Assembly (NCBI GenBank): GCA_965242565.1 | Contig: OZ251457.1 | Location: forward strand, 451,891 to 515,890 | Direction of reading: 5' to 3' | DNA: 64,000 nt | Source: Dehalococcoidia bacterium | Lineage (GTDB): Bacteria > Chloroflexota > Dehalococcoidia > Bin125 | Notes under the pieces: model-generated | Told to the model about the DNA's origin: nothing | The model's database searches: none | What the model saw: only the letters and a program-made list of their open reading frames with translations | Translations under genes and position numbers: made by a program | Shown here: positions 7,902 to 41,240 of the stretch, piece by piece | How the letters are laid out: every line of letters starts with the position of its first letter | Numbering within the stretch: position 1 is the stretch's first letter

Positions 7902-7923
7902 GATGTGCCCCTTCCGCCCGCGA

Positions 7924-8724
7924 TCATACCGCCGCCGACCAGCGCCGCCCCAGAAAGTCGAGCACGGCGGCGTTGAAGCGCTGCGGCTGCTCGAAGTAGA
8001 CGGAGTGTCCCGCATCGGGCACGCAGACGTACTCGCTGCCCTGCATCGCGCGGTGCGACGCCTCCATCGCTGTCGCCGGCACGATTCGGTCGTGCTCGCC
8101 GATGATGAACAGCAGCGGCATGCCGAGCTGCCGCATCATCGGCATCGTGGAGCCGCGCCAGGTGGCGAGCCCGGGCGTGGGCGCGAGGAACGTGCCGGGG
8201 CGCGGCGGATTCCAGCCATTCATGCGGCGGTAGAGCCAGGTTAGTTCGGGGCGCTCGCGCTCGGTCGCCGGTGCCAGCGCGCGCTGGCGCAGCGTCTGGC
8301 CGCGCACTTCCTCGTAGTGGCGGGCCTGAATGGCCCGTACCTCGTCGTTGACCAGCCCGGCCAGCGTGCCCGACAGGATCAGCGCGCGGATCCGTCCCGG
8401 GAAGAGCATCGCAAACGGGGTGGCGGTGCGCCCGCCCATCGAGTGGGCGATCATCGCAAAGTCCTCAATGCCCAGATGCTCGAGCAGCGCGTGCAGGTCG
8501 TAGGGGAAGGCGCGTCGTCCGGGTCCGCCGGGCACATCGCGGCTCAGCCCGAAGCTGCGGTGATCGAACGTCACGACGCGGTAGCGCTCCGCGAACGCGG
8601 GTACCTGCTGCCACCAGACGAGGTGGTTGCCGCCCGCGCCGTGCGCGAGCACCAGCGCCGGCGCGTCCTCCGCGCCGTGGCATTCGTACCAGAGGTCGAT
8701 CTCGTTGCAGCGCAGAAACGGCAT
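7924..8724 (-). CDS. Alpha/beta-hydrolase fold protein
   Basis: HGAGGN...AHSMGG nucleophile elbow (GxSxG); start MPFLRCNEIDL inside the 392-aa ORF. Confidence 0.75.
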   Translation of the reverse strand: MPFLRCNEIDLWYECHGAEDAPALVLAHGAGGNHLVWWQQVPAFAERYRVVTFDHRSFGLSRDVPGGPGRRAFPYDLHALLEHLGIEDFAMIAHSMGGRTATPFAMLFPGRIRALILSGTLAGLVNDEVRAIQARHYEEVRGQTLRQRALAPATERERPELTWLYRRMNGWNPPRPGTFLAPTPGLATWRGSTMPMMRQLGMPLLFIIGEHDRIVPATAMEASHRAMQGSEYVCVPDAGHSVYFEQPQRFNAAVLDFLGRRWSAAV

Positions 8725-8738
8725 CGAGCGAGCGCCGC

Positions 8739-9221
8739 TCAGCCCGCCTGGGCGGCGGCGAGCACCATTTCGAGCGCGCGGATCGCGGTCAGCCGCTTGT
8801 TGCCCTCGCGGTCTTCCGCCCAGACATGCCGCTCCGCCGCGATGCGGTCGCCCGGACCGACCGCCGCGATCCAGACGGTGCCGACGGGACGCTCCTCGTT
8901 GCCGCCGGTCGGTCCGGTGATGCCCGTCTCCGCCACGCCGATATCGGCGTTGAGCGTGTCGCGCACGCCGCGCGCCATCGCCACCGCCGCCTCTTCGGAG
9001 ACCGAGCCGTGTTCGCGCAGCAGCTCGCGATCGACGCCGATCAGGTTGATCTTCGGATGATTGTGATAGGGCGACGCGCCGCCGATCCAGGCGCGGCTGC
9101 AACCGGGAATGTCGGTGATCCAGTGTCCGATCAGGCCGCCGGTGTCGGTCTCGGCGGTGGCGAGGGTCAGCCTCCGCTCGGTCAGCGTGTCGACGACGGT
9201 TTGCGCCAGCGCTTCGGTCAT
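8739..9221 (-). CDS. CinA-family C-terminal domain protein (PncC-like nicotinamide-nucleotide amidohydrolase)
   Basis: 160 aa with the typical CinA_C motifs (LATAESCTGG-like: TLATAETDTGGLIGHWIT). Confidence 0.75.
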   Translation of the reverse strand: MTEALAQTVVDTLTERRLTLATAETDTGGLIGHWITDIPGCSRAWIGGASPYHNHPKINLIGVDRELLREHGSVSEEAAVAMARGVRDTLNADIGVAETGITGPTGGNEERPVGTVWIAAVGPGDRIAAERHVWAEDREGNKRLTAIRALEMVLAAAQAG

Positions 9222-9225
9222 CGGA

Positions 9226-9546
9226 TCAGTCCTCGTCCTCGCCGATGCCGGCGTGCGAGTCCCACTTGAAGATCAGGATCAGGATGAAGGTGACGAGCAC
9301 CAGGAACGGTGCGAGCATGATCGAGAACTCGAACCACTCCTCGCGATCGAAGTTGTTGACGCCGGTCCCGCCCTCGTCGGGCGCGGCCTGGAGTGCGAGC
9401 TCCGCCGTCGGTCCGGCCGGCGGCGCGTCGGCCGCCAGCGCATCGCCGGCCGCCAGCGCGCCCAGCGCGACGATCATCACCGCCGCAGCGGCGAGCGTCA
9501 GCGCCACGCGCCGCGCAGCTGCTGCGAACATCGTCCGAATTCTCAT
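9226..9546 (-). CDS. Small hypothetical membrane protein
   Basis: 106 aa; N-terminal hydrophobic segment and a C-terminal TM helix (FLVLVTFILILIF). Confidence 0.35.
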   Translation of the reverse strand: MRIRTMFAAAARRVALTLAAAAVMIVALGALAAGDALAADAPPAGPTAELALQAAPDEGGTGVNNFDREEWFEFSIMLAPFLVLVTFILILIFKWDSHAGIGEDED

Positions 9547-9578
9547 CACGGCCGCTCCTCCCTCAAGATCGTCCGCGC

Positions 9579-10880
9579 TTACTCCAGCGCGCCTTCGGCG
9601 GTCAGCGCGTCGATTCGCTCCTGATCGTAGCCGAGCATGCGGCTGAGCACGAAATGGGTGTCTTCGCCCAACCGCGGCGAGGGCGAGACGATCTCGGCGG
9701 GTGTCTCCGAGAAGCGCCAGGGCGGCGCGAGCACGGTGCGCTGGCGCGTCTCCGGCGGGCGGATCGGCACGCCGGCGCCGCGCGCCTGAAACTGCTCCGA
9801 GGCGTGGATGTCCGCGCCCCACATCGAGGGGCTGGCCGGCACGCCCGCTTCACGCAGCGTTTCCGACGCGGCCAGCGCCGACTGCTCGCTCGTCCACGCC
9901 TCAATCGGCGCGCGCAGCTCTTCGCGGTGCTTCCAGCGCCGCAGACCGGTGCGGAAGCGCGGATCGGCGCGCAGGTGATCCAACCCCGCCGCGTCGCACA
10001 GACTCTCCCACTCGGCGTCGTTGCGGCAGGCGATCGCCAGCCACGCTCCGTCGCTGCCATCATCGGAGCCAGACGCGCCGTTGGGCTCGCGCATTGCGGC
10101 GCAGCGGTAGACATCGTGCGGCGCCCAGGCGCGGTGGCCGTTGCCCAGCCGCTCGCCGTCGTCGCCCAGCAGCGAGACGCGTAGAAACTCCTCGCCCATA
10201 TGCATCGCGATCGCCTCGCGCGATGAGGCATCCACAAACTGCCCCAGCCCGGTGCGGTCGCGGTAGTGCAGCCCTGCCAGCATCGCAAACGCGGCCGCCG
10301 TGCCCGCGCGCAGATCGATCGAGCCGCCCATCGTCAGCGGCGGCTCGTCGGGCGCGCCGGAGAGGTAGGCGAGCCCGGCCAGCGCGGCGAAGGTCGGCGC
10401 GTAGCCGGTGTAGTTGCGCTCCGGCCCCGACGCGCCCAGCGCGCTGGCGGAGACCAGCACGATGTCTTCGCGCTGCTCGCGCAGCGACTCGTAGCCCAGC
10501 CCCAGCTTGTCCAGCGTGCCCGGGCGGAAGTTGTCGATCGCGCCGTCCGCCGTCGCCGCCAGATCGCGCACCACCTGCTTCGCGCCATCCTCTTTGAGAT
10601 TGAGCTGAATGGAGAGCTTGTTGAGGTTAAGTTCGTTGAACATCGGCGCCTGGTTGACGCCGCCGCGGAATGCGCCCATCGCCAGCGAGCGCTGGCGGCT
10701 GTGGTCGATCCGCGTGCGCGACTCGACCTTGATCACCTCCGCGCCGAGCAGCGCCAGCAGCATCGCGCCGTACGGTCCGGCCCAGGCCCAGGTGAAGTCA
10801 ATGATCCGCCGCCCCGCCAGCGGGCCGCGATGCGCGATCGACGCGAGCGGGAACTGGCCGTTGGCTCCGTTGCTGGTCAT
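9579..10880 (-). CDS. CoA-transferase family III (CaiB/BaiF) protein
   Basis: RIIDFTWAWAGPYG...AEVIKVE N-terminal signature; 4-nt overlap with the next paralog. Confidence 0.8.
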   Translation of the reverse strand: MTSNGANGQFPLASIAHRGPLAGRRIIDFTWAWAGPYGAMLLALLGAEVIKVESRTRIDHSRQRSLAMGAFRGGVNQAPMFNELNLNKLSIQLNLKEDGAKQVVRDLAATADGAIDNFRPGTLDKLGLGYESLREQREDIVLVSASALGASGPERNYTGYAPTFAALAGLAYLSGAPDEPPLTMGGSIDLRAGTAAAFAMLAGLHYRDRTGLGQFVDASSREAIAMHMGEEFLRVSLLGDDGERLGNGHRAWAPHDVYRCAAMREPNGASGSDDGSDGAWLAIACRNDAEWESLCDAAGLDHLRADPRFRTGLRRWKHREELRAPIEAWTSEQSALAASETLREAGVPASPSMWGADIHASEQFQARGAGVPIRPPETRQRTVLAPPWRFSETPAEIVSPSPRLGEDTHFVLSRMLGYDQERIDALTAEGALE

Positions 10881-12091
10881 GCGATCACTCCCGCCCGCCG
10901 CGCCTGCGCCGGCGTCCAGGGCGCGAGCTGCGGCGCGGTCAGCTCGTTGGTCGCTTCGCCGAGTTGCGGCGCAGGCGCGCGCGCCGCCCTCGGCGTCTCC
11001 GTCCACTCCGCCGCGAACTGCGCGTAGGACGCCGGACCGACCGCTGGATGCTCAAGCGTCTCGAAAAAACCGCGCAGCTGTTCCTGCTCGGAGACCATCA
11101 CCTCCGAGGGGCGCAGCACCGGCCCGGCCGGGGCGCTTTCGGCCTGCAACAGGCGGTAGACCTCGTCGCGCGTCCGGGCGCCCGCCCACTCGTCGATCGC
11201 TTCCTGCGCCGTATCCGCCATCTCCAGCCGATCGCGCAGCTTGCCCTCTTCGTCGTAGGCCCAGGCCGGATCGCCCATCGCGCTCAGCAGCCCGCGCCAC
11301 TGGTGCGGCTGCGGCGTCACTGTGATCACGTGCCCGTCGGCGCAGTCCATCCGCCCGCCGAACGAGGTGCGCCCGCTGCGCATAATCGGCGGCGGCCCGC
11401 CGTCGTTGGCCGCGATCGAGATGTCCACCCGATCGATCGTCATCATCGCCTCCGTCGCCGCCACATCCACGATCTGCCCCTCGCCCGTGCGATCGCGCGC
11501 GATCAACGCCGCCCAGACCGCCAGCGCGAGCGCCAGCCCCGCGTCCGCCTCGTGGACGCGCGCGCCGGCCATGATCGGCGAGCCGCCGTCCGCGCCCAGA
11601 TTGCGCCGCACGCCGGCCGCCGCGCCCGAGGCGTGCGCGCGCGTCAGCGCGCTCGACGGCCATTCGGCGGCGGGTCCGTCCAGCCCCCACGGCGTGAGCG
11701 CGGCGATGATCAGCCGCGGATGCGCCTCGCGCAGCGCCTCCAGTGCCAGCTCCGCCTCTTCCAGGCAGCTGGGCGGCCAATCGGTGACGAGCACATCCGC
11801 ATCGCGCAGCAGCGCCTGGAGGACTCGCTTCCCGGCGGCGGTGAGCAGATCGAGCGCCACGCTGCGCTTCGAGGTGTTGTAGTGCAGGAAGACGGTCGAA
11901 GTCTCGCGCCCCGGCCCGGCGCCGGCAAACGGCGCCATCCGACGCGCCGGATCCCCGCCCGGCGGCTCCACCTTGATCGTCTCCGCCCCCGCGTCGGCGA
12001 GCAGTTTGCCGGCAAACGGCGCAGCCACCTCGGTCGCCAGCTCGACTACGCGCAGCCCGTCCAGCAGCGTCGGTTTCGGAGCGTTCGTCAT
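10877..12091 (-). CDS. CoA-transferase family III (CaiB/BaiF) protein
   Basis: LDGLRVVELATEVAAPFAGKLLADAGAETIKVE signature. Confidence 0.8.
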   Translation of the reverse strand: MTNAPKPTLLDGLRVVELATEVAAPFAGKLLADAGAETIKVEPPGGDPARRMAPFAGAGPGRETSTVFLHYNTSKRSVALDLLTAAGKRVLQALLRDADVLVTDWPPSCLEEAELALEALREAHPRLIIAALTPWGLDGPAAEWPSSALTRAHASGAAAGVRRNLGADGGSPIMAGARVHEADAGLALALAVWAALIARDRTGEGQIVDVAATEAMMTIDRVDISIAANDGGPPPIMRSGRTSFGGRMDCADGHVITVTPQPHQWRGLLSAMGDPAWAYDEEGKLRDRLEMADTAQEAIDEWAGARTRDEVYRLLQAESAPAGPVLRPSEVMVSEQEQLRGFFETLEHPAVGPASYAQFAAEWTETPRAARAPAPQLGEATNELTAPQLAPWTPAQARRAGVIA

Positions 12092-12195
12092 GCCAACAGC
12101 CTCACCGATGCGCAGTCTACGCCCCACCCCCACCCAGGCGACAGCCACCCGGCGATTGGTAGGCTGCGAACAGGACAACGACAGCGAGGCCCACG

Positions 12196-12702
12196 ATGGT
12201 GAGGATGAGGCAAATCGCCCATGAGTTGCTGAAGACAGTCGACGCGTCGGAGCTGCGCGCCGACCCGGCCGCGCTTGTGGCGCAGCTGGAGAGCTTCGAC
12301 GATCGGATCACGATCATGCGCAACGGCAAACCCGCTGTCACCCTCTGGGGCTACGAGCCGACCCCGATTCACAACTGGAAACAGAACGACGAAGGCGAAT
12401 GGGTGGAATACACCCACGACTGGCGGGAGAGTGCGTTCGGGCGCATCGTGCAGCTCGGCGATCTGGCGGCGAAGTTCGACGCGCTCGCCGATGATCTGGA
12501 GGCCAACGCCGGCGGTGCGCTGATCAAATCAGGCGACGAGCGGGTGGCGGAGTTGACGCCCTACCGGCCGTCATGGTTCGGACGTTCGCTCAGGAAGCAC
12601 CAGTTCCTCGACGAACACAACGAACGCATGGACGCTGATCTGGACGCTGATCTGGACGCTGAGCGGGAGGCAAGGGCTGCGGCGTCGGGAGATGGGAGTT
12701 GA
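12196..12702 (+). CDS. Phd/YefM-like antitoxin with a long C-terminal extension
   Basis: N-terminal ...RITIMRNGKPAVTLWGYE beta-strand signature of Phd/YefM; 4-nt overlap with the downstream PIN gene. Confidence 0.5.
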   Translation: MVRMRQIAHELLKTVDASELRADPAALVAQLESFDDRITIMRNGKPAVTLWGYEPTPIHNWKQNDEGEWVEYTHDWRESAFGRIVQLGDLAAKFDALADDLEANAGGALIKSGDERVAELTPYRPSWFGRSLRKHQFLDEHNERMDADLDADLDAEREARAAASGDGS

Positions 12703-13097
12703 TCCTCCTCGACACGCAGACACTGGGCTGGCACGACCAGGCCGACCGCCGCCTCGGTCCACGTACGCGGGCCATGATCGAGCGGCACTGGCGGCAGAGG
12801 GAAGTCGCTGTCTCCGCGCTCTCGTTCTGGGAAATCACGATGAACCGCGACGCCCGGGAATTCCGCCGAATCCCCGACATCCGAGTGTGGCGGAACGATC
12901 TGCTCAAAGACGGGCTGATCGAGATTCCTGTAGATGGTGAGATCGCGATCGCGGCGGGCCGGATCACTGGCATGCACGGCGATCCCGGCGATCGGATCAT
13001 CGTGGCGACCGCGTTTCGCGCCGAAACGCTGGTGACCTCCGACGAGCGGATTATGCGCTGGGGTGGACAGCTCGATCGCGTCTACGCCTACGACTGA
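12699..13097 (+). CDS. vapC: PIN-domain toxin (VapC-like)
   Basis: MILLDTQTL...FWEI...IIVATA...TSD PIN acidic-residue pattern. Confidence 0.75.
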   Translation: MILLDTQTLGWHDQADRRLGPRTRAMIERHWRQREVAVSALSFWEITMNRDAREFRRIPDIRVWRNDLLKDGLIEIPVDGEIAIAAGRITGMHGDPGDRIIVATAFRAETLVTSDERIMRWGGQLDRVYAYD

Positions 13098-13174
13098 GCG
13101 GCCGCCGACGCCCGCGCCCATCCTCCTAAAGGCCTGCCAGCTATTGGTACGCTGGCAACGGATCGGAGCCAACC

Positions 13175-13663
13175 ATGGTGATGGCGGAGGACACAGCCCT
13201 CGCAGGCTTGACGGTGCTGGACGCCACGGAACTGGCGACCCGCTGCCAGGAAATCGTGGATCAGGCTGTGCGCAGCGAGGACCGGCTCGTGCTCACCGGC
13301 GACGGCCGCCCCATCGCCTACCTGGAGCGCTACGAACCGCCGCCGCGGCCGTTCTACGTGCGCCCGTCGCCTGAGGGCGGCGGCGCATCCGAGCGCGTCT
13401 ACCGCGAGGTCGTTGAGACCATCCATCGGTCCGTCAAGGTGGCGGAGTTGCAAGCGCAATCGCCCGACCTGGTCGAGCAGGCCGCCGCCAACGACTGGCG
13501 GGTGTTGATCTGGAACCGCAACGGTCCCGACGCGATGCTCATCCGCTACGCCCGGCGCGGCCGTCAGACCTCGCCTGTCACCGCGGTCAACGACATTGAC
13601 TGGGATGTCGGCGAAGTGTGGAACGCCACCCTCGACGGTCCGACGGCGGGCGAGTTGCTGTGA
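13175..13663 (+). CDS. Phd/YefM-like antitoxin (extended, 162 aa)
   Basis: LTVLDATELATRCQEIVDQAVRSEDRLVLTGDGRPIAYLERYE matches the Phd/YefM fold pattern; stop overlaps the GTG of the next PIN gene. Confidence 0.55.
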   Translation: MVMAEDTALAGLTVLDATELATRCQEIVDQAVRSEDRLVLTGDGRPIAYLERYEPPPRPFYVRPSPEGGGASERVYREVVETIHRSVKVAELQAQSPDLVEQAAANDWRVLIWNRNGPDAMLIRYARRGRQTSPVTAVNDIDWDVGEVWNATLDGPTAGELL

Positions 13664-14058
13664 TTCTGTCCGACACGCAGACGCTCTACTGGTGGCGCGA
13701 GGATCGCGGGCGTCTTGGTACGAACGCGCTCGCGGTGCTTGATGCGGCGTGGGATGCACGCAACCTGGCGGCCTCTGCAATCTCATTCTGGGAAATCGGG
13801 ATGCTCGAGTCGAAGGGGCGGCTGTCGCTTCCTGTCAACGCCGACCAATGGCGGCTGGACCTGCTCAACGAAGGGCTTGCGGAGATACCCGTCGATGGCG
13901 GAATCGGCCTCCGCGCGGCCTACCTCGCCAACTTCCATGGCGACCCTGCGGATCGCATCATCGTCGCGACCGCCCTCAACGACCATCAACTCCTGACCAC
14001 AGATCGCGAAATCCTGGATTGGGATGGCCCGCTTCAGCGCATCGACGCTCGGCGATAG
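13660..14058 (+). CDS. vapC: PIN-domain toxin (VapC-like), GTG start
   Basis: VILSDTQTLYWW...FWEIGM...IIVATAL...TTD. Confidence 0.7.
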   Translation: MILSDTQTLYWWREDRGRLGTNALAVLDAAWDARNLAASAISFWEIGMLESKGRLSLPVNADQWRLDLLNEGLAEIPVDGGIGLRAAYLANFHGDPADRIIVATALNDHQLLTTDREILDWDGPLQRIDARR

Positions 14059-14106
14059 CCGCTGCCATGGAAAGCTCGGTACGCTGACGGCGGATCGGAG
14101 CCGAGC

Positions 14107-14607
14107 ATGGTGATGGCGGAGGACACAGCCCTCGAAGGTTTGACGGTGGTGGACGCCGCGGAATTGGCGACCCGCTGCCAGGAAATCGTGGATCAGGCCG
14201 TGCGCAGCGAGGACCGGCTCGTGCTCACCGGCGACGGCCGCCCCATCGCCTACCTGGAGCGCTACGAACCGCCGCCGCGGCCCTTCTACGTGCGCCCGTC
14301 GCCTGAAGGCGGCGGCGCATCCGAGCGCGTCTACCGCGAGGTCGTCGAGACCATCCACCGGTCCGTCAAGGTGGCGGAGCTGCAAGCGCAATCGCCCGAC
14401 CTGGTCGAGCAGGCCGCCGCCAACGACTGGCGGGTGCTGATCTGGAACCGCAACGGCCCCGACGCGATGCTCATCCGCTACTTCTGGGACGGGATGCATC
14501 GCAACTCCGGGATCGACAACGGCGACCTCGTCACGGCGGTCCGCGAGCTGCGCGACGAGATGGCCGCGGAAGCCGAGCGGTCAATGAACCGAAGGTTCCC
14601 CCCATGA
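14107..14607 (+). CDS. Phd/YefM-like antitoxin. Residues 1-125 are nearly identical to the 13175..13663 paralog; the C-terminus is unrelated
   Basis: Direct comparison of the two translations: only three substitutions in the first 125 aa, then complete divergence after ...DAMLIRY. Confidence 0.55.
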   Translation: MVMAEDTALEGLTVVDAAELATRCQEIVDQAVRSEDRLVLTGDGRPIAYLERYEPPPRPFYVRPSPEGGGASERVYREVVETIHRSVKVAELQAQSPDLVEQAAANDWRVLIWNRNGPDAMLIRYFWDGMHRNSGIDNGDLVTAVRELRDEMAAEAERSMNRRFPP

Positions 14608-15002
14608 CGATGTTCGACACACACACGCTGCTCTGGTGGCGGTTGGAACCTCATCGGCTGAGCCCGGAGGCCAAGCGAGTCAGCGGCAGTGCTTTCCTCC
14701 GCGGCGAGCTGGCGGTGTCGGTGATCTCGTTTCAGGAGATCGGACGCTTGGTCAGGCGAGGCCGCGTGACGCTGCCGACCGATCTGCGGACTTGGCGTCG
14801 GCAGCTGTTGGACGAAGGTTTAGTGGAGTTGCCGGTCGACGGCGAAATTGTCCTGCGAACGCACGAGCTTGCCAATCTGCCGGCCGATCCCGCTGATCAG
14901 CTGATCGTCGCGACGGCGGCGGAGCGTCACACGCTGATCACCGCCGATGACGAAATCTACGATTGGCTGGGCCCGCTTGACCGCGTCCGCGCCGACGATT
15001 AA
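14604..15002 (+). CDS. vapC: PIN-domain toxin (VapC-like)
   Basis: MTMFDTHTLLWW...FQEIGRL...LIVATA...TAD. Confidence 0.7.
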   Translation: MTMFDTHTLLWWRLEPHRLSPEAKRVSGSAFLRGELAVSVISFQEIGRLVRRGRVTLPTDLRTWRRQLLDEGLVELPVDGEIVLRTHELANLPADPADQLIVATAAERHTLITADDEIYDWLGPLDRVRADD

Positions 15003-15029
15003 CCCCTGCACGTTAGACTCAACGCCAGC

Positions 15030-16241
15030 GTGACTGACACCAACACCCCCCAGGACACTCCCCGCCCCTTTGACGGCGTCCGCGTGCTCGAGCTCGCCGA
15101 GGGCATCTCCGGTCCCTTCGCCGGGCGCTGGCTCGCCGCGCTCGGCGCTGACGTCGTCAAAATCGAGCGCACCACCGGCGACCCCTCCCGCGCCTTCGGA
15201 CCCTGGCCCGACGACCTCCCCGACGACGAAACCAGCGGCCTCTACCTCTACCTCAACGGCGGCAAGCGCAGCGTCACGCTCAACCTCGACACCTCCGACG
15301 GGCGCGCGATCCTCGAAGAGCTGGCGGCCGACGCCGAAATCGTGATCGAATCGTTCGCGCCCGGCTACCTGGCCGAGCGCGGACTGGACTACGACGCGCT
15401 CTCCGCACAGCGCCCCCAGCTGGTGATGATCTCAATCACTCCCTTCGGCCGGACAGGCCCCAACGCCGACCTGCCCGCCACCGAACTCACCCTCTTCGCC
15501 GCCTGCGGCCAACTCTGGCTAACCGGCGACCCGGCCCGTACCCCGCTCAAAAACGGCGGCTCGCAGCCCTCCTACCAGGCTGGCCTCAACGCACTCGCCG
15601 CCGTCGCCGGCGCCTACTACGGCGCGCTCGCCCACGGACAGGGCGCGCACATCGACCTGGCCATGCAGGAAACCTACGCCGCCATGGCCGAAGCCTTCAT
15701 GACCCGCGCCTCCCAACTCGGCATCGAGACGCTCCGCTCCGGCAACAACCTCAACGCCCTCTGGGGCATCTACCCCACCGCCGACGGCTACGGCGGCGTC
15801 TGCGCCCTCCCGCGCAACTTCCCCGGCCTCGTCGAAGCGCTCGACATGGAGGAAATCCGCGATCCCCGCTTCGCCGAGCCCGCCGGCCGCCTCGAACACA
15901 ACGACGAGCTGATCGCCCTGCTCTACGGCTGGTTCGCCCAGCGCACCCGCGAGGATCTGACCGAACTCGGCCTGCGCCACCGCGTCCCCTTCGGCTACGT
16001 CGCCTCGATCGCCGACCTCGTCGAATCCGAACACCTCAAACAGCGCGACTTCTTCATCCAACAGGACCACCCCCGCGCCGGCGCGCTCACCTTCCCCGGC
16101 CGCCTCTGGACCAGCAGCGAGCACGACTGGCGCAGCGACCGCGCCCCCGAACTCGGCGAACATAACGTCGCCGTCCTCCACCAGGAGCTCGGCTACGACC
16201 TCGAAGACCTCGTCCGCCTCCGCGAACTCGACGCCATCTAG
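15030..16241 (+). CDS. CoA-transferase family III (CaiB/BaiF) protein (GTG start)
   Basis: FDGVRVLELAEGISGPFAGRWLAALGADVVKIE signature. Confidence 0.8.
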   Translation: MTDTNTPQDTPRPFDGVRVLELAEGISGPFAGRWLAALGADVVKIERTTGDPSRAFGPWPDDLPDDETSGLYLYLNGGKRSVTLNLDTSDGRAILEELAADAEIVIESFAPGYLAERGLDYDALSAQRPQLVMISITPFGRTGPNADLPATELTLFAACGQLWLTGDPARTPLKNGGSQPSYQAGLNALAAVAGAYYGALAHGQGAHIDLAMQETYAAMAEAFMTRASQLGIETLRSGNNLNALWGIYPTADGYGGVCALPRNFPGLVEALDMEEIRDPRFAEPAGRLEHNDELIALLYGWFAQRTREDLTELGLRHRVPFGYVASIADLVESEHLKQRDFFIQQDHPRAGALTFPGRLWTSSEHDWRSDRAPELGEHNVAVLHQELGYDLEDLVRLRELDAI

Positions 16242-16254
16242 GGAGCGCCGCATC

Positions 16255-17541
16255 ATGCCCGACCCCGGCCGACCCCTCAGCGGCGTCCGCGTCGCCGACC
16301 TCACGATGATCTGGGCCGGCCCTTACGCCACCAAAATCCTCGCCGACCAGGGCGCGGAGGTGATCAAAATCGAATCCCCCCGCGCCTGGGACAACATCCG
16401 CACCCTGCTCCCGCCGCCCACCGCGCCCGGCGAGCGCTGGTGGAACACCAACTTCTACTTCCACGAGTACAGCCGCAACAAAAAGTCGCTCAGCCTCGAC
16501 CTCGCCGCGCCCCGCGGCAAGGAAATCTTCGCCCGCCTCGTCGCCGAGTGCGATGTCGTGATCGAGAACTACCGCACCGACGTGATGGACAACCTCGGCC
16601 TCAGCTACGACTGGCTGCGCAAGCAGCGCGAGGACATCATCGTCGTCGGCATGGCCGGCTTCGGCAAAACCGGCCCCGAGCGCAACGCCGTCGGCTATGG
16701 GCCGATCATCGAGATGATGTCCGGCCTCACCTCCACCAGCGGCTACGGCGACGACGGCATGCCCTACAAGAGCGGCATCTCCTACGGCGACCCCATCGCC
16801 GGCGTCACCGCCGCCGCCGCCGTCGCCACCGCCCTCATCCACCGCCGCCGCACCGGACGCGGCCAATACATCGACCTCTCCCAGCGCGAAGCCATGTCCA
16901 CGATGCTCGGCGAGTTCTATATGGACTGGTCGATGAACCGCCGGCTGCCCGAGCATCAGGGCAACGGGCACGACTGGATGGCCCCGCACAACATCTACCC
17001 CTGCGCCGGCGAGGAGGAGTGGATCGCCATCTGCGTCCGCACCGACGCCGAGTGGGAATCACTCAAGCAGGTCATGGGCGCCCCCGCCTGGGCGGACGGC
17101 GAGGAATACTCAGACCAAATCTTCCGCTGGGAGCACCGCGAACAGCTGGACCGCGCAGTCGCCGAGTGGACCTCGACGCGCAGCAAAACCGAGCTGTTCG
17201 GGTCCCTGCGCGACGCCCGCATCCCCTCCTCACCCGTCTGGAAGACGCTCGAAGTGATCCGCGACCCGCACCTCAAGGCCCGCGGCTACTACGAGCCGCT
17301 CCACCACCCCGAAGTCGGCATCTGGAACGTCCACGGCTGGCTCTGGCGCACCGCCGGCGCAGGTCCCTGCGTGCTCGCCCCCGCCCCCGACTTCGGTCAA
17401 CACAACGACGAAATCCTCGGCGGCCTGCTCGGCCTCAGCGCCGAAGAGCAGGCGGCCCTCGAAGCCGCCGGCATCACCGCCGCCCGCCCCGAAGGCATCC
17501 CCTTCGCCTCCGAAATGCCCGCCCAACCCTCCCTCATCTAA
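16255..17541 (+). CDS. CoA-transferase family III (CaiB/BaiF) protein
   Basis: LSGVRVADLTMIWAGPYATKILADQGAEVIKIE signature. Confidence 0.8.
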   Translation: MPDPGRPLSGVRVADLTMIWAGPYATKILADQGAEVIKIESPRAWDNIRTLLPPPTAPGERWWNTNFYFHEYSRNKKSLSLDLAAPRGKEIFARLVAECDVVIENYRTDVMDNLGLSYDWLRKQREDIIVVGMAGFGKTGPERNAVGYGPIIEMMSGLTSTSGYGDDGMPYKSGISYGDPIAGVTAAAAVATALIHRRRTGRGQYIDLSQREAMSTMLGEFYMDWSMNRRLPEHQGNGHDWMAPHNIYPCAGEEEWIAICVRTDAEWESLKQVMGAPAWADGEEYSDQIFRWEHREQLDRAVAEWTSTRSKTELFGSLRDARIPSSPVWKTLEVIRDPHLKARGYYEPLHHPEVGIWNVHGWLWRTAGAGPCVLAPAPDFGQHNDEILGGLLGLSAEEQAALEAAGITAARPEGIPFASEMPAQPSLI

Positions 17542-17565
17542 GCCCCGTCCACCAACCCGCCATAC

Positions 17566-17728
17566 CCCCGCCCCCTTTTCCCCGTCATTCCCGCCCCCTT
17601 TTCCCCGTCATTCCCGCCCCCTTTTCCCCGTCATTCCCGCCCCCTTTTCCCCGTCATTCCCGCCCCCCTTTCCCCGTCATACCCCCACCCCCTTTTCCTC
17701 GTCATTCCCGCCCCCGAGCGGGAATCGG
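17566..17728. repeat. Tandem array (about 6 units) of a 23-bp repeat (GTCATTCCCGCCCCCTTTTCCCC) ending in a GGGAAT hairpin (CATTCCCGCCCCCGAGCGGGAATC)
   Basis: Perfect direct repeats visible in the sequence; no spacers, so not CRISPR. Confidence 0.7.
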
Positions 17729-17760
17729 CCCCGAGTCCCCCTCCAACGTCGCGCTACATC

Positions 17761-17975
17761 ACTCCCCCACTCCGTCGCCCCAGACTTGATCTGGGGCCCA
17801 AACCCAACTCTCTTCACGCGCCAGAGCCCCGACCTGCCCCCCAACGCCCGCACGCAGGACCGCCCAACGCCCCACCCCACTAACCCACCATCCCTGACCT
17901 CCGCCATCCCCGCGCACCTCTCCGTCATACCCGCGCTTGCCGCGGAGCCTGCCCCCGGCCCGAACGGGGGTATCT
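17761..17975. repeat. MITE-like mosaic repeat (CCGTCGCCCCAGACTTGATCTGGGGCCCAAACCCAAC ... CCGTCATACCCGCGCTTGCCGCGG...GGGTATCTCGACG)
   Basis: Same modules recur at about 21841, 25840, 32420, 35570 and 36450. Confidence 0.55.
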
Positions 17976-18186
17976 CGACGTGAACAGCGCCAACGCCGCA
18001 CTCTCTTCCCTAACCTTCGCCTACGCGCATGAGCCGCGCCGAATCATCATCAGCATAACCCCTTATCAAACACTATTGACATCCTACGCGCAAATCTGCC
18101 ACCCTTCCCCCACCGGTCCTCATCTCCGCCCCGAAGCCGCCGAACAGTCGGCCGCCCGCATGCGCGGGGGTGGGAAGGGGGAGCAC

Positions 18187-20388
18187 ATGGTCCATCTGCC
18201 GCCGCCGCTCATGCACGAGCGACCGCACCTGCCGCACGCCGTCAGCGAAGCCTTACGACACCGCCCCCACATCGTGCCGCTCATCGCCGACTCCCCCCAG
18301 CACCACCCACGCATCTTCAGCGCCGCCGCGATCGGTGCCAGCTTCCTGCTGCTCCTCGTCGCAGCCATCACCGTCTACAACAGCATCGTGCGAGCGCCCG
18401 ACGCTCAAAACGGGGCGCTGACCGAGGCGCTGCTGGCCTCCGGCACGACGGCCGACTGGCACTGGGGCGGCGGTCCGCCCGATGCGGAAGCCGCCGCCGC
18501 GCGAGACGGCGAACTCCAGCCCGGCAACCTCTACATCAACACCGACAACGGCGACATCTACCTGCGGCTCGAAGACGGTTGGAGCGACGATCCCGTCGGC
18601 AGTCTGGGCAGCGCCGCTCAGCCGATCATCCTCGAGCAGCCCGCCGCCGCCGGTGTTGATCGGGCGTCAATTGTCGGGGGGGGGGGGGGTAAAACCGGTG
18701 ATTCTTCCGCCGACTACAGCACATCGGGCGCTCCGGGACCCGCCGGACCGCCCGGTCCGCGCGGCGAAGCGGGGCTGCAAGGACCCGATGGCGAACGCGG
18801 TCCCCGCGGCCTGATCGGACCCACCGGCCCGCAAGGATTGCAAGGCGAGCAGGGCGAACCCGGCCCCGCTGGTGCAATCGGCCCGCAAGGGCTGCAAGGC
18901 GAACAGGGTGAGCGCGGCGAACCCGGTCCCGCCGGTGCAGTCGGCACGCAAGGACTGCAAGGCGAGCGCGGCCCCGCTGGTCCTGCCGGCGCAGTCGGCG
19001 CAATCGGTCCGCAGGGTCCTGTCGGCCCCGCCGGTCCGCGAGGATTGCAAGGCATCCCCGGACCTCCCGGCGCACAAGGCGAGCGCGGCGAGCAGGGCCT
19101 CCAGGGACCCACCGGACCGGCCGGGGGTCCGCCCGGACCGCAAGGCGCTGTGGGACCGTCCGGACCTCAAGGCGACGACGGCCCGCCCGGTCCGCGCGGC
19201 GAACGCGGACCGCAGGGCGAGCGCGGACCCGCCGGTCCGCAGGGTATCCAGGGACCGCCCGGACCCGCCGGCGGCCCGCGAGGAGCCACCGGCGCGGTCG
19301 GCCCCCAAGGTCCGCAGGGACCGCGCGGCCCACAGGGCGAACGCGGCTTCACGGGCGGCAGCGGCGCGCCCGGCCCGCAGGGCGCGACGGGCGAACGCGG
19401 CCCCGCCGGACAGCGCGGCGGCCGCTGGTTCACCCACGCCGGCGGCCACGCCTCCTACAGCTGGACGGGCATCGCCCTGCAATCCGGCGACATGTTCATG
19501 AACACCGCCAACTCGCAGATCTTCAGCTACGACGGCGCAGCTTGGGCGCTGGTCGGCACGCTGACCGGCATCCGGGGATTGCAGGGGCCGCAGGGCGCGG
19601 TCGGTCCGCAAGGCCCGCAGGGAGCGACCGGCCCGCAAGGCGAGCAAGGCCCACAAGGAAACATCGGCGCCGCCGGCCCCACCGGCTCGGTAGGCCCGCA
19701 GGGCGAAGCGGGCAACCGCATCTACCACCACACCGCCGCCCCGCCCGCCGTCGGCGACGCCTACTGGAGCGCCTACGGCAACCCGACGCTGCAACGCGGC
19801 GACCTGCTGATCAACACCGGCAACGGCGACCTGCACTGGTACGGCGGCAGCGCCTGGTCGCTGCTCGTCAACCTCCGTCAGGGACCGCAGGGACCGGCCG
19901 GTCCGACCGGACCGCAGGGCGACCAGGGCGCGACCGGTCCTCAGGGCGCGCGCGGAATGGGCTGGCACTTCGGCACCGACGACGTGCCGGCGCCCGTCGG
20001 TCCGGTCGCCGGCGACCTCTACTTCAACTACCAGAGCTTCGACGTCTACGCCTACCGCTCGGCTCCGGGTACGGGCACGAGCTGGAATCGGGTCACGTCG
20101 CTGCGCGGGCCGCAGGGCGAGGTCGGCCCGCAAGGCTCCCAGGGCGAGATCGGTCCGCAAGGCGCGCCGGGCGCAACAGGAGCAGCGGGCGCGACCGGCC
20201 CCGCAGGCGCGCCGGGCAACCAGTGGTACCACGGAGCCGGTGAGCCGACGAGCAACCCGCCCGCCGCGCGAGCCGGCGGCTTCCGCGCCGGCGACATGTA
20301 CCTCGACACCTCCAACCACCGCATCTGGAGCCACAACGGCTCCGCTTGGACCCAGATCGCCAGCCTCGTCGTCACCGCCCAGCCCTGA
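18187..20388 (+). CDS. Membrane-anchored collagen-like repeat protein (about 250 aa of G-X-Y triplets plus five interspersed about 25-aa repeats)
   Basis: SD-like GGGAAGGGGGAG precedes ATG 18187; TM helix [22 protein letters not shown]; uninterrupted [23 protein letters not shown]... triplets; recurring GD(L/M)(Y/F)xNTxNxx(I/L)(Y/W)xYxGxxW motif. Confidence 0.75.
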
Positions 20389-20447
20389 CCGGTCCCCGCG
20401 GAGCGGTCCGCCGCGCCCGTCGACGGGCGCGGCGGACCCGTTCCGCA

Positions 20448-20906
20448 TCACTCACGTTCTCGCTCCACCACCGCGTCCCCCAGCGCCTCGCGGAAATACC
20501 CCGTACGCCCTTCCAGCGACTCCCCCACCACCTCCGCCCACGCCGCCGCCGGACCCAGCCGCCGCGCAATCTCCTCTATATCCGTCCACCACTCCCAGCC
20601 GCGCGGCAGCGGCGCCGGCAGCTCCAGCCGCAGCGCATCCTCCTCCTCAGGCAGCCAGAAACGGCAATACCACGCCCGCCGACGCACAATCCCCGCCTGC
20701 ATCATCAGCGCATAGGTCGTGCGCCCCGCATCGTCGCGCCGCTCCGGTTCCTCCGCGCAACGCAGCAGGAAGTTGAAGATCGAGAACTGCCCCGACTCGA
20801 CGCCCGTCCGCGCCGCGCCGATGCGCCGCACCCCGTCGGCCACCGCCAGCAGCAGCGCCGCCCGCTCCACCGACAGGTTCGCCTCCTCCAGCGTCGTCGC
20901 CCTCAC
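20448..20906 (-). CDS. Hypothetical protein
   Basis: 152-aa ORF whose start overlaps (ATGA) the stop of the upstream enoyl-CoA hydratase gene; no recognisable domain. Confidence 0.35.
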   Translation of the reverse strand: MRATTLEEANLSVERAALLLAVADGVRRIGAARTGVESGQFSIFNFLLRCAEEPERRDDAGRTTYALMMQAGIVRRRAWYCRFWLPEEEDALRLELPAPLPRGWEWWTDIEEIARRLGPAAAWAEVVGESLEGRTGYFREALGDAVVERERE

Positions 20907-21785: not shown

Positions 21786-22060
21786 CCCTGGCAACCTCCG
21801 ACCACCGCTTGACCCCCATCACAGTTGCTCCGTCGCCCCAGCACACCCCCTTTCCGTCGCCCCAGACTTGATCTGGGGCCCAAACCCAACGTTGCGCGCG
21901 ACACCAAGCTCCCGCGCCGTCCCCACTTCCGTCATACCCGCGCTTGCCGTGGGTATCTCGCCGAGAGCAGCACCACCGTTGCATCCCCCTCCCTCCCGTC
22001 ATTCCCGCCTCCGAGCGGGAATCAGCCCCGCGCATCCTCCTAACGCCCCTCCCTACCCGA
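21786..22060. repeat. MITE-like mosaic repeat; begins with a 55-bp segment identical to the 3' end of the IS110-type remnant at 36408-36462
   Basis: CCCTGGCAACCTCCGACCACCGCTTGACCCCCATCACAGTTGCTCCGTCGCCCC is present at both sites. Confidence 0.5.
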
Positions 22061-22322
22061 TCCGACCATCCCGACCAGATAGAAACCCCACTCACACCCC
22101 AAGACTCACCCGACCACCCCCATCGCGCCATCTGTGGACCACTCAGACTCCCCCAGTTGCCATCGACGCTTGAATGTTCTAGATTTCTGTTTGGAACTCA
22201 CGTTCCCGGCGGCGTGGACGACATCCCAGGAAAACCCCAATGACCATCGCACTGATCCTGATCACCATCGCCCTCGGCCTCTGGCTCGTGCGCCAGTGGT
22301 CCCGCGGCGACCTCGCCTCACC

Positions 22323-22455
22323 CTCCCGTCATTCCCGCCGCCCCAGTTCCCGTCATTCCCGCCAGCCCAGTTCCCGTCATTCCCGCCGCCCCAGTTCCCG
22401 TCATTCCCGCCGGCCCAGTTCCCGTCATTCCCGCCCCCGAGCGGGAACCCGCCCA
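22323..22455. repeat. Tandem array (about 5 units) of a 23-bp repeat (CCCAGTTCCCGTCATTCCCGCCG) ending in CCCGAGCGGGAAC
   Basis: Direct repeats in the sequence; the apparent ORF 22240..22536 (SRHSRRPSS...) is just a translation of the array. Confidence 0.65.
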
Positions 22456-22614
22456 ACCCCGTTCCATCTGCCCGTTTCGCCCGCCCTGCCCGCCGCGAGC
22501 ACCACAGACCCTCCCTCCAACCGACGAGCGGCCTGACCCTCGGACGCCCCTTGCCTCACAACCCCGCACAACGCTTAGACTGCCATTCGCGTAGCTCGCG
22601 CGCGTGAGGACGAC

Positions 22615-23340
22615 ATGGCTCAAACCCCAGACAACGTCGACGCTGCCCGCTCCGACCCGGCCGCCCTGCTCGAGCGCGTCGTGCTCTTCCGCAATATGCC
22701 CTCCGACATGCTCCGCGAACTCGGCCACCAACTGCGCTCCGTCACCTACCGCGCGCAGACCGACATCTTCCACGCCGGCGACGAAGGCGCCACGATGTAC
22801 ATCATCCTGAGCGGCGCCGTCAAAATCTTCGTCCCCGCCCTCGACGGACGCGAAGTCGTCCTCGCCGTCCACCGCTCCGGCGACCTCTTCGGCGAAATGG
22901 CCCTGCTCGACGACGAACCGCGCTCCGCCTCCGCCAGCACCATGGAAGACACCGAGATGTTCAGCCTCAACCGCGCCGACTTCTCCAACGTGCTCAACAG
23001 ACACCCCGAAGCGCTGCGCGCCATCATCGATGTGCTCGTCGAGCGCCTCCGCGCCACCAACCAGTCCATCCAGGACGCCTACCTGCTCGATGTGCCCGGC
23101 CGCCTCGCCCGCCGCCTGCTGCTGATCGCCGACGAACACGGCGCCGACACCGAGCGCGGACGCGACATCGGCCTCCGCGTCAGCCAGCAGGAATTGGCCA
23201 GCATGATCGGCGCCAGCCGTGTCGCCGTCAACAAGCAGCTCCAGGCCTGGCGGCAGCGCGGCATCGTCGAAGTCACCCGCCAGCGCGTCGTGCTTCTCGA
23301 CCCCGCCGCCCTCCAACGCGAGTTCACCCTCTCCCCCTAG
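22615..23340 (+). CDS. Crp/Fnr-family transcriptional regulator
   Basis: cNMP-binding domain (MYIILSGAVKIF...GEMALLD) plus C-terminal HTH (SQQELASMIGASRVAVNKQLQ). Confidence 0.8.
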   Translation: MAQTPDNVDAARSDPAALLERVVLFRNMPSDMLRELGHQLRSVTYRAQTDIFHAGDEGATMYIILSGAVKIFVPALDGREVVLAVHRSGDLFGEMALLDDEPRSASASTMEDTEMFSLNRADFSNVLNRHPEALRAIIDVLVERLRATNQSIQDAYLLDVPGRLARRLLLIADEHGADTERGRDIGLRVSQQELASMIGASRVAVNKQLQAWRQRGIVEVTRQRVVLLDPAALQREFTLSP

Positions 23341-23416
23341 CCGCCCAACGTGACCGAACAGGGCCGAACGCAACCGAACAAACCCGAACGCAGCCGAACA
23401 GCGAACAGGACGACCC

Positions 23417-24127
23417 GTGCCCGACACCCTCAACCCCGACCAACTCGCCGCGCTCCGCGCCTGGCCCTCCCCGGCCGTCGCCAACGCCATCGAAACCTTC
23501 GACATCCGCAGCCGCGCCTTCGGCTTCATGACCCCCGACATCCTCTGCCGCTTCCCCGACATGCAACCCATCGTCGGCTACGCCGCCACCTGCAAAATTC
23601 GCGCCAGCATCCCGCCCGGCGACGACCCCGAAACCCAGGCCGCGCCCGACTGGTGGGCCCACATCGAATCCATCCCCGAACCCCGCATCATCGTCATCCA
23701 GGACCTCGACCAACCACCGATCGGCTCTTTCTGGGGCGAGGTCAACGGCAACATCCACAAGGCGCTCGGCGGCATCGGCCTGATCACCGACGGCGGCGTC
23801 CGCGACCTCGACGAGGTTGAGGAGCTCGGCTTCCAGTTCTTCTCCCGCGAAATCCTCGTCTCCCACGCCTATGTCCACATCGTCGAAATCGGCCAGCCCG
23901 TCACCGTCGGCGGCCTCACCGTCTCCCCCGGCGACCTCCTCCACGGCGATAAGCACGGCGTCGTCCAAATCCCCCACGACATCGCCCCCCAGGTCGCCGA
24001 CGCCGCCCAGGCCGTCGAAGACCGCGAGCGCGTGATCATCAACTACGCCAAATCCGCCGACTTCACCCGCCAGGGCCTGCTCAACATCATGCGCCCCACC
24101 CCCAGCGCCGAGGAGGAAACGCCCTAG
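23417..24127 (+). CDS. RraA-family protein (RNase E inhibitor RraA / 4-hydroxy-4-methyl-2-oxoglutarate aldolase-like), GTG start
   Basis: RraA-like fold motifs (GDLLHGDKHGVVQIP, GGVRDLDE). Confidence 0.65.
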   Translation: MPDTLNPDQLAALRAWPSPAVANAIETFDIRSRAFGFMTPDILCRFPDMQPIVGYAATCKIRASIPPGDDPETQAAPDWWAHIESIPEPRIIVIQDLDQPPIGSFWGEVNGNIHKALGGIGLITDGGVRDLDEVEELGFQFFSREILVSHAYVHIVEIGQPVTVGGLTVSPGDLLHGDKHGVVQIPHDIAPQVADAAQAVEDRERVIINYAKSADFTRQGLLNIMRPTPSAEEETP

Positions 24128-25635: not shown

Positions 25636-26030
25636 GCGTGTTCACCCTTCCGTCATACCCGTGCCACCCCCACTCCGTCATACCCGCCCCACCCCTACTC
25701 CGTCATACCCGCCCCACCCCTACTCCGTCATACCCGCGCTTGCCGCGGGTATCTCGACGTGACCAGCACCGACCCCTCGCCAGCCTGCCAGCCATGCCGC
25801 GCGCCCCCCGCGCACCAATCCGTCGCCTCCCGCACCAATCCGTCGCCCCAGACTTGATCTGGGGCCCAAACCCAACCCCACTCGCAGCACAAAGCCCCGA
25901 GCCCGTCTGCCCACACCTGTTCGCAGGCCAGCCCGATATGCCGCGCCGCCGACAGCCAACGTATGGATTCCCGCTCGGGGGCGGGAATGACGGTGGAGGC
26001 GGGGCGGGAATGACGGAAGGGGTGAACAGA
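25636..26030. repeat. MITE-like composite repeat including a 25-bp tandem array (CCCACCCCTACTCCGTCATACCCGC x3-4)
   Basis: Direct and inverted repeats in the sequence, shared with other intergenic copies. Confidence 0.55.
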
Positions 26031-35257: not shown

Positions 35258-35660
35258 CCCCCCCTAACACCAACTCGCCCCAACCTGCCAGGCGCACACC
35301 GCTCGTCCAACCCCCAACCGCCCGCCCATTTCTCCTCGTCGTTCCCGCCCCCACCTCCCGTCATTCCCGCCCATTTCTCCTCGTCATTCCCACCCCCACC
35401 TCCTGTCATTCCCGCCCATTTCTCCTCGTCGTTCCCGCCCCCACCTCCCGTCATTCCCACCCCCACCTCCTGTCATTCCCGCCCTCACTCTCCGTCATTC
35501 CCGCCTCCGAGCGGGAATCTGCCGCGAGCCGCCCCTTCCCGGTCATTCCCGCCCCACCCTCCCGTCACACCCGCGCCGAAGAATCCGTCATACCCGCGCT
35601 TGCCGCGGAGCCTGCCCCCGGCCTGAACGGGGGTATCTCGACGAGAGCACCCCCAACCCC
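35258..35660. repeat. MITE-like composite repeat with a 45-bp tandem array (CCATTTCTCCTCGTCGTTCCCGCCCCCACCTCCCGTCATTCCCGC x3-4) and GGGAAT hairpins
   Basis: Direct repeats in the sequence. Confidence 0.6.
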
Positions 35661-41040: not shown

Positions 41041-41240
41041 CTGAAAGTCTCCCCCCATCGCGGGGGGAGATTTAGAGGGGGGCGCGCCGCAACACCGCAC
41101 GCCCCGGAACCTCCGAAGGCGCCCCCAGATTCATCGCCCCGCCGACCCCCCTTCCATCGCCCCTCGGCCCCTTCCCGTCATTTCCGCCGACCTCTCCCGT
41201 CATTCCTGCGCAGGCAGGAATCCAGGCGCCCCCCGCCGTT
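41041..41240. repeat. Hairpin TCTCCCCCCATCGCGGGGGGAGA plus a MITE-like fragment (CCGTCATTCCTGCGCAGGCAGGAATCC)
   Basis: Same families as at 1801-2030 and 17700. Confidence 0.5.

Follow-up and report, generated by a model that had tools for sequence, protein, structure and literature searches.

The window analysed here is a 64,000-nucleotide (nt) stretch of contig OZ251457.1 of a Dehalococcoidia bacterium (Chloroflexota; assembly GCA_965242565.1), which carries an unbroken open reading frame (ORF) at positions 18187–20388 of its forward strand. The ORF translates into 733 amino acids (aa), ends with TGA and encodes a collagen-like protein. In a Pfam scan of the whole protein, Collagen (PF01391) was the sole family found (E 9e-53, 176 bits against a cut-off of 27.2), and 116 Gly-X-Y triplets (348 aa) were counted in four regions, with Pro at 44% of the X positions and Gln and Arg at 34% and 16% of the Y positions, respectively. 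At 0.286 nm per residue, the computed triple-helix length is ca. 100 nm. The G-G breaks in collagen region 1 (window positions ca. 19132 and 19279) bound two 16-triplet blocks, and blocks of 15–16 triplets were likewise found at the related loci L002, L003 and L004. Five copies of a second, β-rich element, hereafter called the module, separate or flank the triple-helix segments (Table 1).

The start of the protein (MVHL) and its C-terminus (...IASLVV.AQP) were shared with the metagenomic relatives P0128, P0151 and P0003. A hydrophobic segment equivalent to that at aa 43–64 was present in five of five relatives (Kyte–Doolittle 2.27–2.75), and basic residues lay N-terminal of the segment in all six proteins, the tails of the relatives being rich in Lys and Arg (e.g., MIRRYPD and MKRMLRYQ). 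This charge distribution, together with the absence of any other hydrophobic segment, suggests that the segment is a type II (N-in/C-out) membrane anchor.

Each module was delimited from the residue after the last triplet to the first Gly of the next collagen run, and the unit of ca. 48–54 aa follows the pattern W-[YHF]-x-G-x-G-x-P ... G-D-x-Y-x-[ND]-T-x-x-G-x-[IV]-Y ... W-x-x-[IV]-x-x-L. This length was assigned because each copy opens with W/I-[YHF]-x-[GH] and a Pro-containing loop 20–25 residues before the G-D-x-Y core. In the window's protein, no linker lies between collagen and module: the junctions read ...GGR/WFTH, ...GNR/IYHH, ...GMG/WHFG and ...GNQ/WYHG, and the near-invariant Trp of the module occupies the position of the next collagen Gly. 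An earlier note on this DNA, made from the letters alone, had described a collagen-like product that has one membrane helix near its N-terminus and in which a β-hairpin-like motif recurs five times between or beside the triple-helix segments, and this description holds; its five quoted motif strings were all found exactly (aa 113–133, 434–459, 538–563, 609–639 and 702–727). The note had underestimated the collagen, however, at ca. 250 aa in three blocks, and what it took for a 25-aa repeat resembling a short β-hairpin is a 48–54-aa unit with four predicted strands.

To exclude the window's own lineage, the five copies were scored with an independent profile built from 255 modules of unrelated proteins. 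They reached 22–49 bits each and 139.6 bits in total, whereas 2,500 composition-preserving shuffles reached at most 10.3 bits. AlphaFold2, run with the module-family alignment from the exhaustive profile search described below, modelled modules E and C with high local confidence (predicted local distance difference test, pLDDT; Table 1). The model of module E (predicted template modelling score 0.79) has strands at residues 2–4, 25–28, 33–37 and 42–47, and that of module C has strands at residues 2–4, 29–32, 37–41 and 46–51 and a helix at residues 13–19. According to these models, the module is an autonomous four-strand β fold that is alike in E and C. The lineage-excluded profile and the fold predicted for these two copies place the window's five copies in an unnamed family of W-x-x-G-x-G-x-P...G-D-x-Y-L-D-T...W modules.

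Table 1. Features of the collagen gene and its immediate surroundings (positions in the window; the independent profile is described in the text).
Feature	Position	Strand	Basis
Tandem repeat array, 23-bp unit CCCGCCCCCTTTTCCCCGTCATT, 6.4 copies	17567–17715	+	within the 646-bp region upstream of the gene
Shine-Dalgarno-like sequence AAGGGGGAG, 3 nt ahead of ATG	18175–18183	+	read from the sequence
Complete coding sequence, 733 aa and TGA	18187–20388	+	translation; start and end common to P0128, P0151 and P0003
N-terminal tail, aa 1–42, His/Arg/Pro-rich, predicted cytoplasmic	18187–18312	+	basic residues before the helix; positive-inside rule
Predicted single transmembrane or signal-anchor helix, aa 43–64	18313–18378	+	mean Kyte–Doolittle 2.49 over 19 aa
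Module A, aa 91–141, membrane-proximal; first module in all relatives	18457–18609	+	31.6 bits, independent profile
Collagen region 1, aa 181–413, 77 triplets, two conserved one-residue G-G breaks (aa 316 and 365)	18727–19425	+	Collagen match, triplet count
Module B, aa 414–460	19426–19566	+	28.8 bits, independent profile
Collagen region 2, aa 461–511, 17 triplets	19567–19719	+	triplet count
Module C, aa 512–565, extra short helix in the β1–β2 loop (model)	19720–19881	+	22.1 bits, independent profile; AlphaFold2 pLDDT 87.7
Collagen region 3, aa 566–592, 9 triplets	19882–19962	+	triplet count
Module D, aa 593–640, divergent: NY for NT/DT, insertion before the conserved Trp	19963–20106	+	34.7 bits, independent profile
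Collagen region 4, aa 641–679, 13 triplets	20107–20223	+	triplet count
Module E, aa 680–733, C-terminal cap; last module in all relatives	20224–20385	+	48.9 bits, independent profile; AlphaFold2 pLDDT 97.0
Perfect G+C-rich palindrome, 34 nt, 15-bp stem, TCGA centre	20405–20438	.	flanked by the stop codons of the collagen gene and of the convergent orf152; read from the sequence

An exhaustive profile search of 1.84 billion representatives (clusters at 50% identity) found the module in 1,716 clusters at E ≤ 1e-3 and in 309 at E ≤ 1e-10, with up to 23 copies per protein and the family consensus WYTGSGAPxxxxGxxGDLYLDTxTGDVYQKxxGxWxxxGNIKG. Only this search succeeded: word-index homology searches with the module alignments A1 and A2 returned nothing, and a search with the full protein was swamped by collagen-only matches, with just two true homologs, at the top of the list. 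A Pfam scan of the isolated window modules matched no family. When 111 diverse modules were scanned singly, no Pfam family was matched by more than two of them and no NCBIfam family by any, and newer precomputed Pfam labels on true homologs comprised only PF01391, with none on the module. A literature search on the motif strings returned no papers, and a cluster look-up gave no informative names. The module is thus widespread, and no curated model or published description of it was found. The earlier note had not recognised its repeat combination as a described family, which holds as far as curated families go; the architecture itself recurs in other proteins, given the number of clusters and the presence of collagen runs in 72 of the top 150 module proteins. 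The note's suggestion of a Phage_fiber_2-like element found no support, since PF03406 gave no match even at E ≤ 10 in the whole protein, in each module or in the 111 diverse modules. The kinship with phage tail-fibre elements that it had noticed was recovered by other routes: canonical modules matched PHROG 3904 ('tail fiber protein'; 11 of 111) and the unannotated phrog_4013 (15 of 111), the tail-fibre PHROG 21412 was also matched, and some of the top family matches were phage tail proteins with Prophage_tail and Peptidase_S74 domains or with GpJ domains.

The association of the module with collagen extends across the family. Among 267 strictly full-length modules, at least three triplets directly abutted upstream in 170, downstream in 144 and on both sides in 106. 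Under a looser adjacency test (within 8 aa of at least three triplets), 66% of 355 full-length modules adjoined collagen, compared with 34% of core-only (hairpin) copies and 16% of random windows drawn from the same proteins.

Foldseek matches of the module fold to predicted viral structures in BFVD had probabilities of ca. 1, template modelling scores (TMq) of up to 0.78 and 20–38% identity. These matches formed two groups, namely giant-virus collagen-like proteins (Orpheovirus, Yasminevirus, Tupanvirus, Megavirus and Moumouvirus) and phage proteins including tail fibres of Pelagibacter, Prochlorococcus and Agrobacterium phages. The look-alikes in the PDB, none of them significant, included the N-terminus of the full-length streptococcal phage hyaluronidase HylP (6x3m, TMq 0.61), Bordetella phage Mtd (1yu1, TMq 0.57 over 47 columns), CBA120 tailspike 3 (TSP3, 25% identity) and the trimerisation domains of collagens XVIII and XV (TMq ca. 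0.48), and several recurred for both modules modelled (E and C). They are nevertheless coherent, being small domains of homotrimeric fibres and trimer formers. A profile search of PDB sequences gave one marginal match (E 0.0034), VP88 of Singapore grouper iridovirus (SGIV; 8hif chain y4), which was also the top fold match of module C (31 columns, root-mean-square deviation 1.3, E 1.6). In this capsid anchor protein, residues 353–383 form a single GDVYLDSTTGNYYVLKDGW hairpin; VP88 was set aside as a functional lead and treated as a shared short hairpin.

Two of these resemblances were followed to the family level. The N-terminal β-prism of Mtd is the element by which the trimer attaches (PMC10743442). 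The module is like this prism (PF18454; 1yu0–1yu4) and HylP 6x3m in its length of ca. 48 aa, in its strand order and in its TMq of 0.57–0.62 over 47–51 columns, and its hairpin motif GDLYLNTxxGDIYxYxG is similar to REITVDTDKNTVVVHDG in the Mtd/HylP comparison. However, Mtd_N is a single N-terminal attachment domain, whereas the module is repeated and embedded in collagen, and homology is not demonstrable. The proteins P0014 (40.6 bits) and P0030 (48.5 bits) passed the Mtd_N cut-off of 26.3 bits through summed weak matches, and the best match in P0014 overlapped a module copy; none of the window's own modules and one of the 111 diverse modules (E 0.0097) matched. The sequence link between the module and Mtd_N is therefore suggestive only. 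The trimerisation domains of collagens XV and XVIII (3n3f and 3hon; PF20010) are similarly small (ca. 55 aa), β-rich and adjacent to collagen, they were among the top fold matches of both modules, and they have a short helix, as is predicted in module C. In contrast, identity to the module was 3–14% over 30–42 columns, with E > 1. One of the 111 modules matched PF20010 (multiplexin trimerisation) at E 0.21, and the fold TMq was 0.44–0.49 over those columns, which does not make the module a member of that family. The relationship is most probably one of analogy rather than homology.

Six proteins of the lineage share one layout: a basic tail, a hydrophobic helix, a spacer, a type A module and a long collagen region with G-G breaks, followed by modules alternating with short collagen runs and, at most a few residues from the stop, a closing type E module. 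Between these fixed ends, the order varied. It was A-B-C-D-E in the window and A-C-D-B-E (twice), A-B-B-B-B-D-E, A-B-B-B-B-C-E and A-C-B-B-C-C-C-E in the relatives, whose collagen content ranged from 300 to 747 aa. Thus, the first and last module types are kept, and the internal cassettes have been shuffled among relatives. Type C was the best-conserved module type (67–90% identity to the type C copies of relatives). In L003, the closest metagenome-assembled genome (MAG), two tandem paralogs with differing internal cassettes were observed at 11726–14419 (898 codons) and 14628–17921 (1,098 codons). At L001, an open frame of 1,256 codons at 7589–11356 encodes 747 aa of collagen and eight modules, and the public call P0152 (452 aa) is a truncated version of it; a 355-aa gene call on the minus strand of the same locus (8855–9922) is probably a spurious antisense call.

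The gene lies among housekeeping genes. Two coenzyme A (CoA)-transferases are located upstream, and orf152 and genes for an enoyl-CoA hydratase, a major facilitator superfamily (MFS) transporter, HtrA, a DPBB protein and a SpoU methylase are located downstream; no phage genes were found near it. Scanning genomes with the first 180 aa of the protein recovered no relative; related loci were located through the neighbouring CoA-transferase. This protein was 87–89% identical to those of three Dehalococcoidia MAGs and 78–83% identical to those of about forty more. Across the wider clade, orf152 directly touches CoA-transferase 2 in convergent orientation, and the collagen gene lies exactly between them in the window, L003 and L004. 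In distant relatives, the two genes abut without a spacer (orf152 homolog at 11283–11720, CoA-transferase end at 11284), and comparison of window positions 17542–20447 with L006–L015 showed the collagen gene and its 646-bp upstream region as an insertion of ca. 2.9 kb. Since the flanking convergent genes touch in the wider clade, the collagen gene is a recent, lineage-specific insertion. At L001 and L002, the genes beside the orthologs are also housekeeping genes, and several have homologs next to the collagen gene of the window (CoA-transferase in L002; SpoU, DPBB, HtrA and MFS in L001), and housekeeping neighbours were likewise found at L003, L004, L082 and L083. The distant proteins P0005 (on a 4-Mb contig) and P0007, which combine collagen and module, are chromosomal with housekeeping neighbours, as are P0151 and P0152. 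The earlier note had proposed looking for a prophage or tail-fibre neighbourhood; none exists here or around the homologs examined, and the gene is chromosomal and cellular rather than of a phage. The names of several related Dehalococcoidia MAGs match the sponge metagenome studies RHO and IRC (PMC8163846), from which a sponge origin of the window's organism can only be inferred.

Several further features surround the gene. Promoter and terminator scans at default consensus detected nothing around it, and the sole match of an Rfam scan was a distant tRNA. The palindrome downstream of the gene has no T tract, and the terminator scan, which needs a T run, did not report it; judged from its sequence, it is a probable bidirectional terminator hairpin, a candidate suited to a high-GC organism. 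A long antisense ORF (18667–20451) overlaps the collagen gene and is a spurious by-product of the G+C-rich repeats. The core of the 23-bp repeat upstream of the gene occurs once upstream of the L001 ortholog. In the window as a whole, dispersed tandem repeats of 22–25 bp with the core CCGTCAT[TA]CCCGC gave 32 matches against 0.5 expected, in arrays at 17567–17715, 21929–22008, 22326–22434, 25650–25737, 25981–26016 (minus strand), 35358–35597 and 41175–41209. They lie mostly between long ORFs and, of the loci retrieved, only a few contained them, chiefly the closest relatives (L001–L005); in L003 and L001, the core also appears as an inverted pair (CCGTCATACCCGCG...CGCGGGTATGACGG), reminiscent of repetitive extragenic palindromic (REP)-like elements. 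The upstream array was accordingly rejected as a gene-specific element, being part of a dispersed intergenic repeat family of the lineage. A 417-aa ORF at 22318–23571 on the minus strand had no Pfam match but is a real gene, as a 67%-identical homolog is present in L003; its 3' end crosses the array at 22326–22434, and its true end is uncertain.

Comparable designs are known from animals, bacteria and phages. The animal collagens XIII, XVII, XXIII and XXV have a type II single-pass anchor and extracellular collagen interrupted by non-collagen domains, and the work of Snellman et al. from 2000, cited in PMC8968730, reportedly covers animal membrane-associated collagens with interrupted triple helices. 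The predicted layout of the window's protein is similar to that of these four collagens; it is not known to be related to them in sequence, and its non-collagen domains are of another kind. Among bacteria, Scl1/Scl2 of Streptococcus, Lcl of Legionella and BclA of Bacillus present a trimeric collagen stalk with a non-collagen trimerisation domain on the surface (PMC8968730). The window's protein differs from these in lacking an LPXTG motif, a V domain and a C1q-like C-terminal domain and in having its predicted anchor at the N-terminus. It did not belong to NCBIfam NF038329, NF038330 or NF046116 (LPXTG-anchored Scl1/Scl2 and Lcl adhesins), and NCBIfam equivalogs stayed below their cut-offs with matches to the collagen only (Lcl 205.6 vs. 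500, SclB 175.4 vs. 325 and SclA 127.3 vs. 400). Closer in design are the EPclA–D proteins of Escherichia coli O157 prophages, of which EPclB has the order PfN-PCoil-Col-Pf2-Col-PfC, with PfC trimerising and Pf2 separating two collagen domains (PMC3368898). As in EPclB, the triple-helix segments of the window's protein are separated and capped by small non-collagen fibre domains. However, the Pfam scan gave no match to PF08400, PF03406 or PF06820, and whereas the EPcl proteins are prophage-encoded and carry an N-terminal tail-attachment domain, the window's protein is chromosomal, starts with a predicted membrane anchor and contains five modules that belong to a different family. The mosaic adhesive trimer (MAT) fibres of Bdellovibrio are chromosomal, trimeric surface proteins with phage-fibre-like β elements that are mosaic across paralogs (PMC10769870). 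Unlike the window's protein, MAT fibres contain no collagen, their N-terminal domain differs and their C-terminal tip domains are varied.

Taken together, we lean, with moderate confidence, towards a membrane-anchored trimeric collagen surface fibre in which the modules nucleate and re-register the triple helix. In bacterial and animal collagens, trimerisation and folding depend on domains outside the collagen (PMC8968730). For the modules, a role in trimerisation and registration appears the most likely one in view of the junctions without a linker, the statistical association with collagen, the constancy of the first and last modules and the similarity to domains that form trimers. The short basic N-terminal tail would stay in the cytoplasm, one helix would anchor the chain in the membrane, and the remainder would project outwards as a homotrimer with ca. 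100 nm of triple helix and five small globular nodes. Collagen would enter strand 1 of each module directly, with the Trp at the next Gly position, and resume right after strand 4. At each node, the three module copies could come together around the axis of the fibre and serve as a knot for trimerisation and registration. Capping of the fibre and nucleation of folding would fall to the C-terminal module, and the internal modules would bring the chains back into register, allowing each collagen segment to fold independently. The type-specific loops, best conserved in type C, may bind ligands as well, and the fibre may have an adhesive role.

Some observations weigh against this interpretation. 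AlphaFold2 folds the module confidently as a monomer, and every PDB fold match of modules E and C had E > 1. Profile–profile comparison (hhalign) with five Mtd_N-type N-termini was weak (P = 0.005, probability 7%), on which ground the module was not filed under Mtd_N, and comparison with Mtd alone was nil (probability 0.14%). The organism is uncultured, with the gene known from its sequence alone, and the hydrophobic segment is a predicted anchor, read from hydropathy and charge pattern in six proteins. Furthermore, the conservation of type-specific loops (67–90% in type C) exceeds what a pure knot would need and hints at binding. The modules could therefore be mainly ligand-binding, lectin- or adhesin-like domains displayed on a collagen stalk, with trimerisation left to the collagen or the membrane-proximal region. 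Such a function would be consistent with the conserved aromatic positions (Trp and Tyr), with the preservation of module types as types across genomes, particularly the type C loop AYW..YGNPTLQ, and with internal cassettes that vary in number and order as in adhesins; the variable parts of phage tail fibres and Bdellovibrio MAT fibres likewise recognise surfaces (PMC10769870). Nevertheless, the linker-free collagen junctions at both ends and the strong statistical coupling are what a structural node on the fibre axis would show, the closest fold look-alikes serve in trimerisation or attachment while lectin blades reached a TMq of only ca. 0.3, and a 48-aa domain offers little space for a pocket. 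We regard a mainly ligand-binding function as unlikely, albeit deserving consideration.

An origin as a relic or domesticated phage tail-fibre gene, i.e., a prophage remnant, appears very improbable. Phage tail fibres and viral collagen-like proteins commonly carry the module and combine it with collagen, the gene was inserted in this lineage alone between two convergent housekeeping genes, and its copy number varies, with a tandem pair in L003. However, no phage gene was found in the flanks of the window or of L001–L004, a tblastn search of 50,697 phage records with the concatenated modules gave no match, and each of the six proteins has a predicted membrane anchor at its N-terminus in place of a baseplate-attachment domain; their ORFs are intact and their ground plan is conserved. 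The housekeeping neighbours, the empty phage search and the predicted anchor speak against counting the gene among phage structural genes. It is more improbable still that the ORF is non-functional, as a repeat-driven assembly artefact or a decaying pseudogene. Collagen repeats do fragment assemblies, as shown by the partial calls P0003, P0091, P0128 and P0138 and by P0152, truncated from its 1,256-codon ORF, and the long antisense ORF of the window is spurious. In contrast, the 733-codon frame is continuous, is preceded by a Shine-Dalgarno-like site and has a conserved start and end, five independent relatives are intact at the same locus, and the modules score well against the independent profile.

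Bacterial collagens need a neighbouring domain to start or register the triple helix, and to our knowledge, few such domains have been characterised (the Scl V domain, the BclA C-terminal domain and EPcl PfC). The protein described here is a new architectural variant among bacterial collagen-like surface proteins, built with a widespread module. In a bolder version, which we put forward tentatively, the module could be an autonomous collagen trimerisation and registration domain of bacteria, phages and giant viruses, a counterpart of the animal non-collagen domains, and the protein a cassette-shuffled analogue of transmembrane collagens that could engage the collagenous matrix of a host, in a lineage whose relatives come largely from sponges. 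A linker-free, collagen-abutting domain of 48 aa would be a compact registration tool for the design of recombinant collagen, and because the module occurs in more than 1,700 clusters, a model of it would improve the annotation of phage tail fibres and giant-virus collagen-like proteins. In the uncultured Dehalococcoidia lineage itself, the protein is a candidate for a major fibre of the cell surface, and its recent gain and fast diversification are the pattern expected of a structure that faces the environment or a host.

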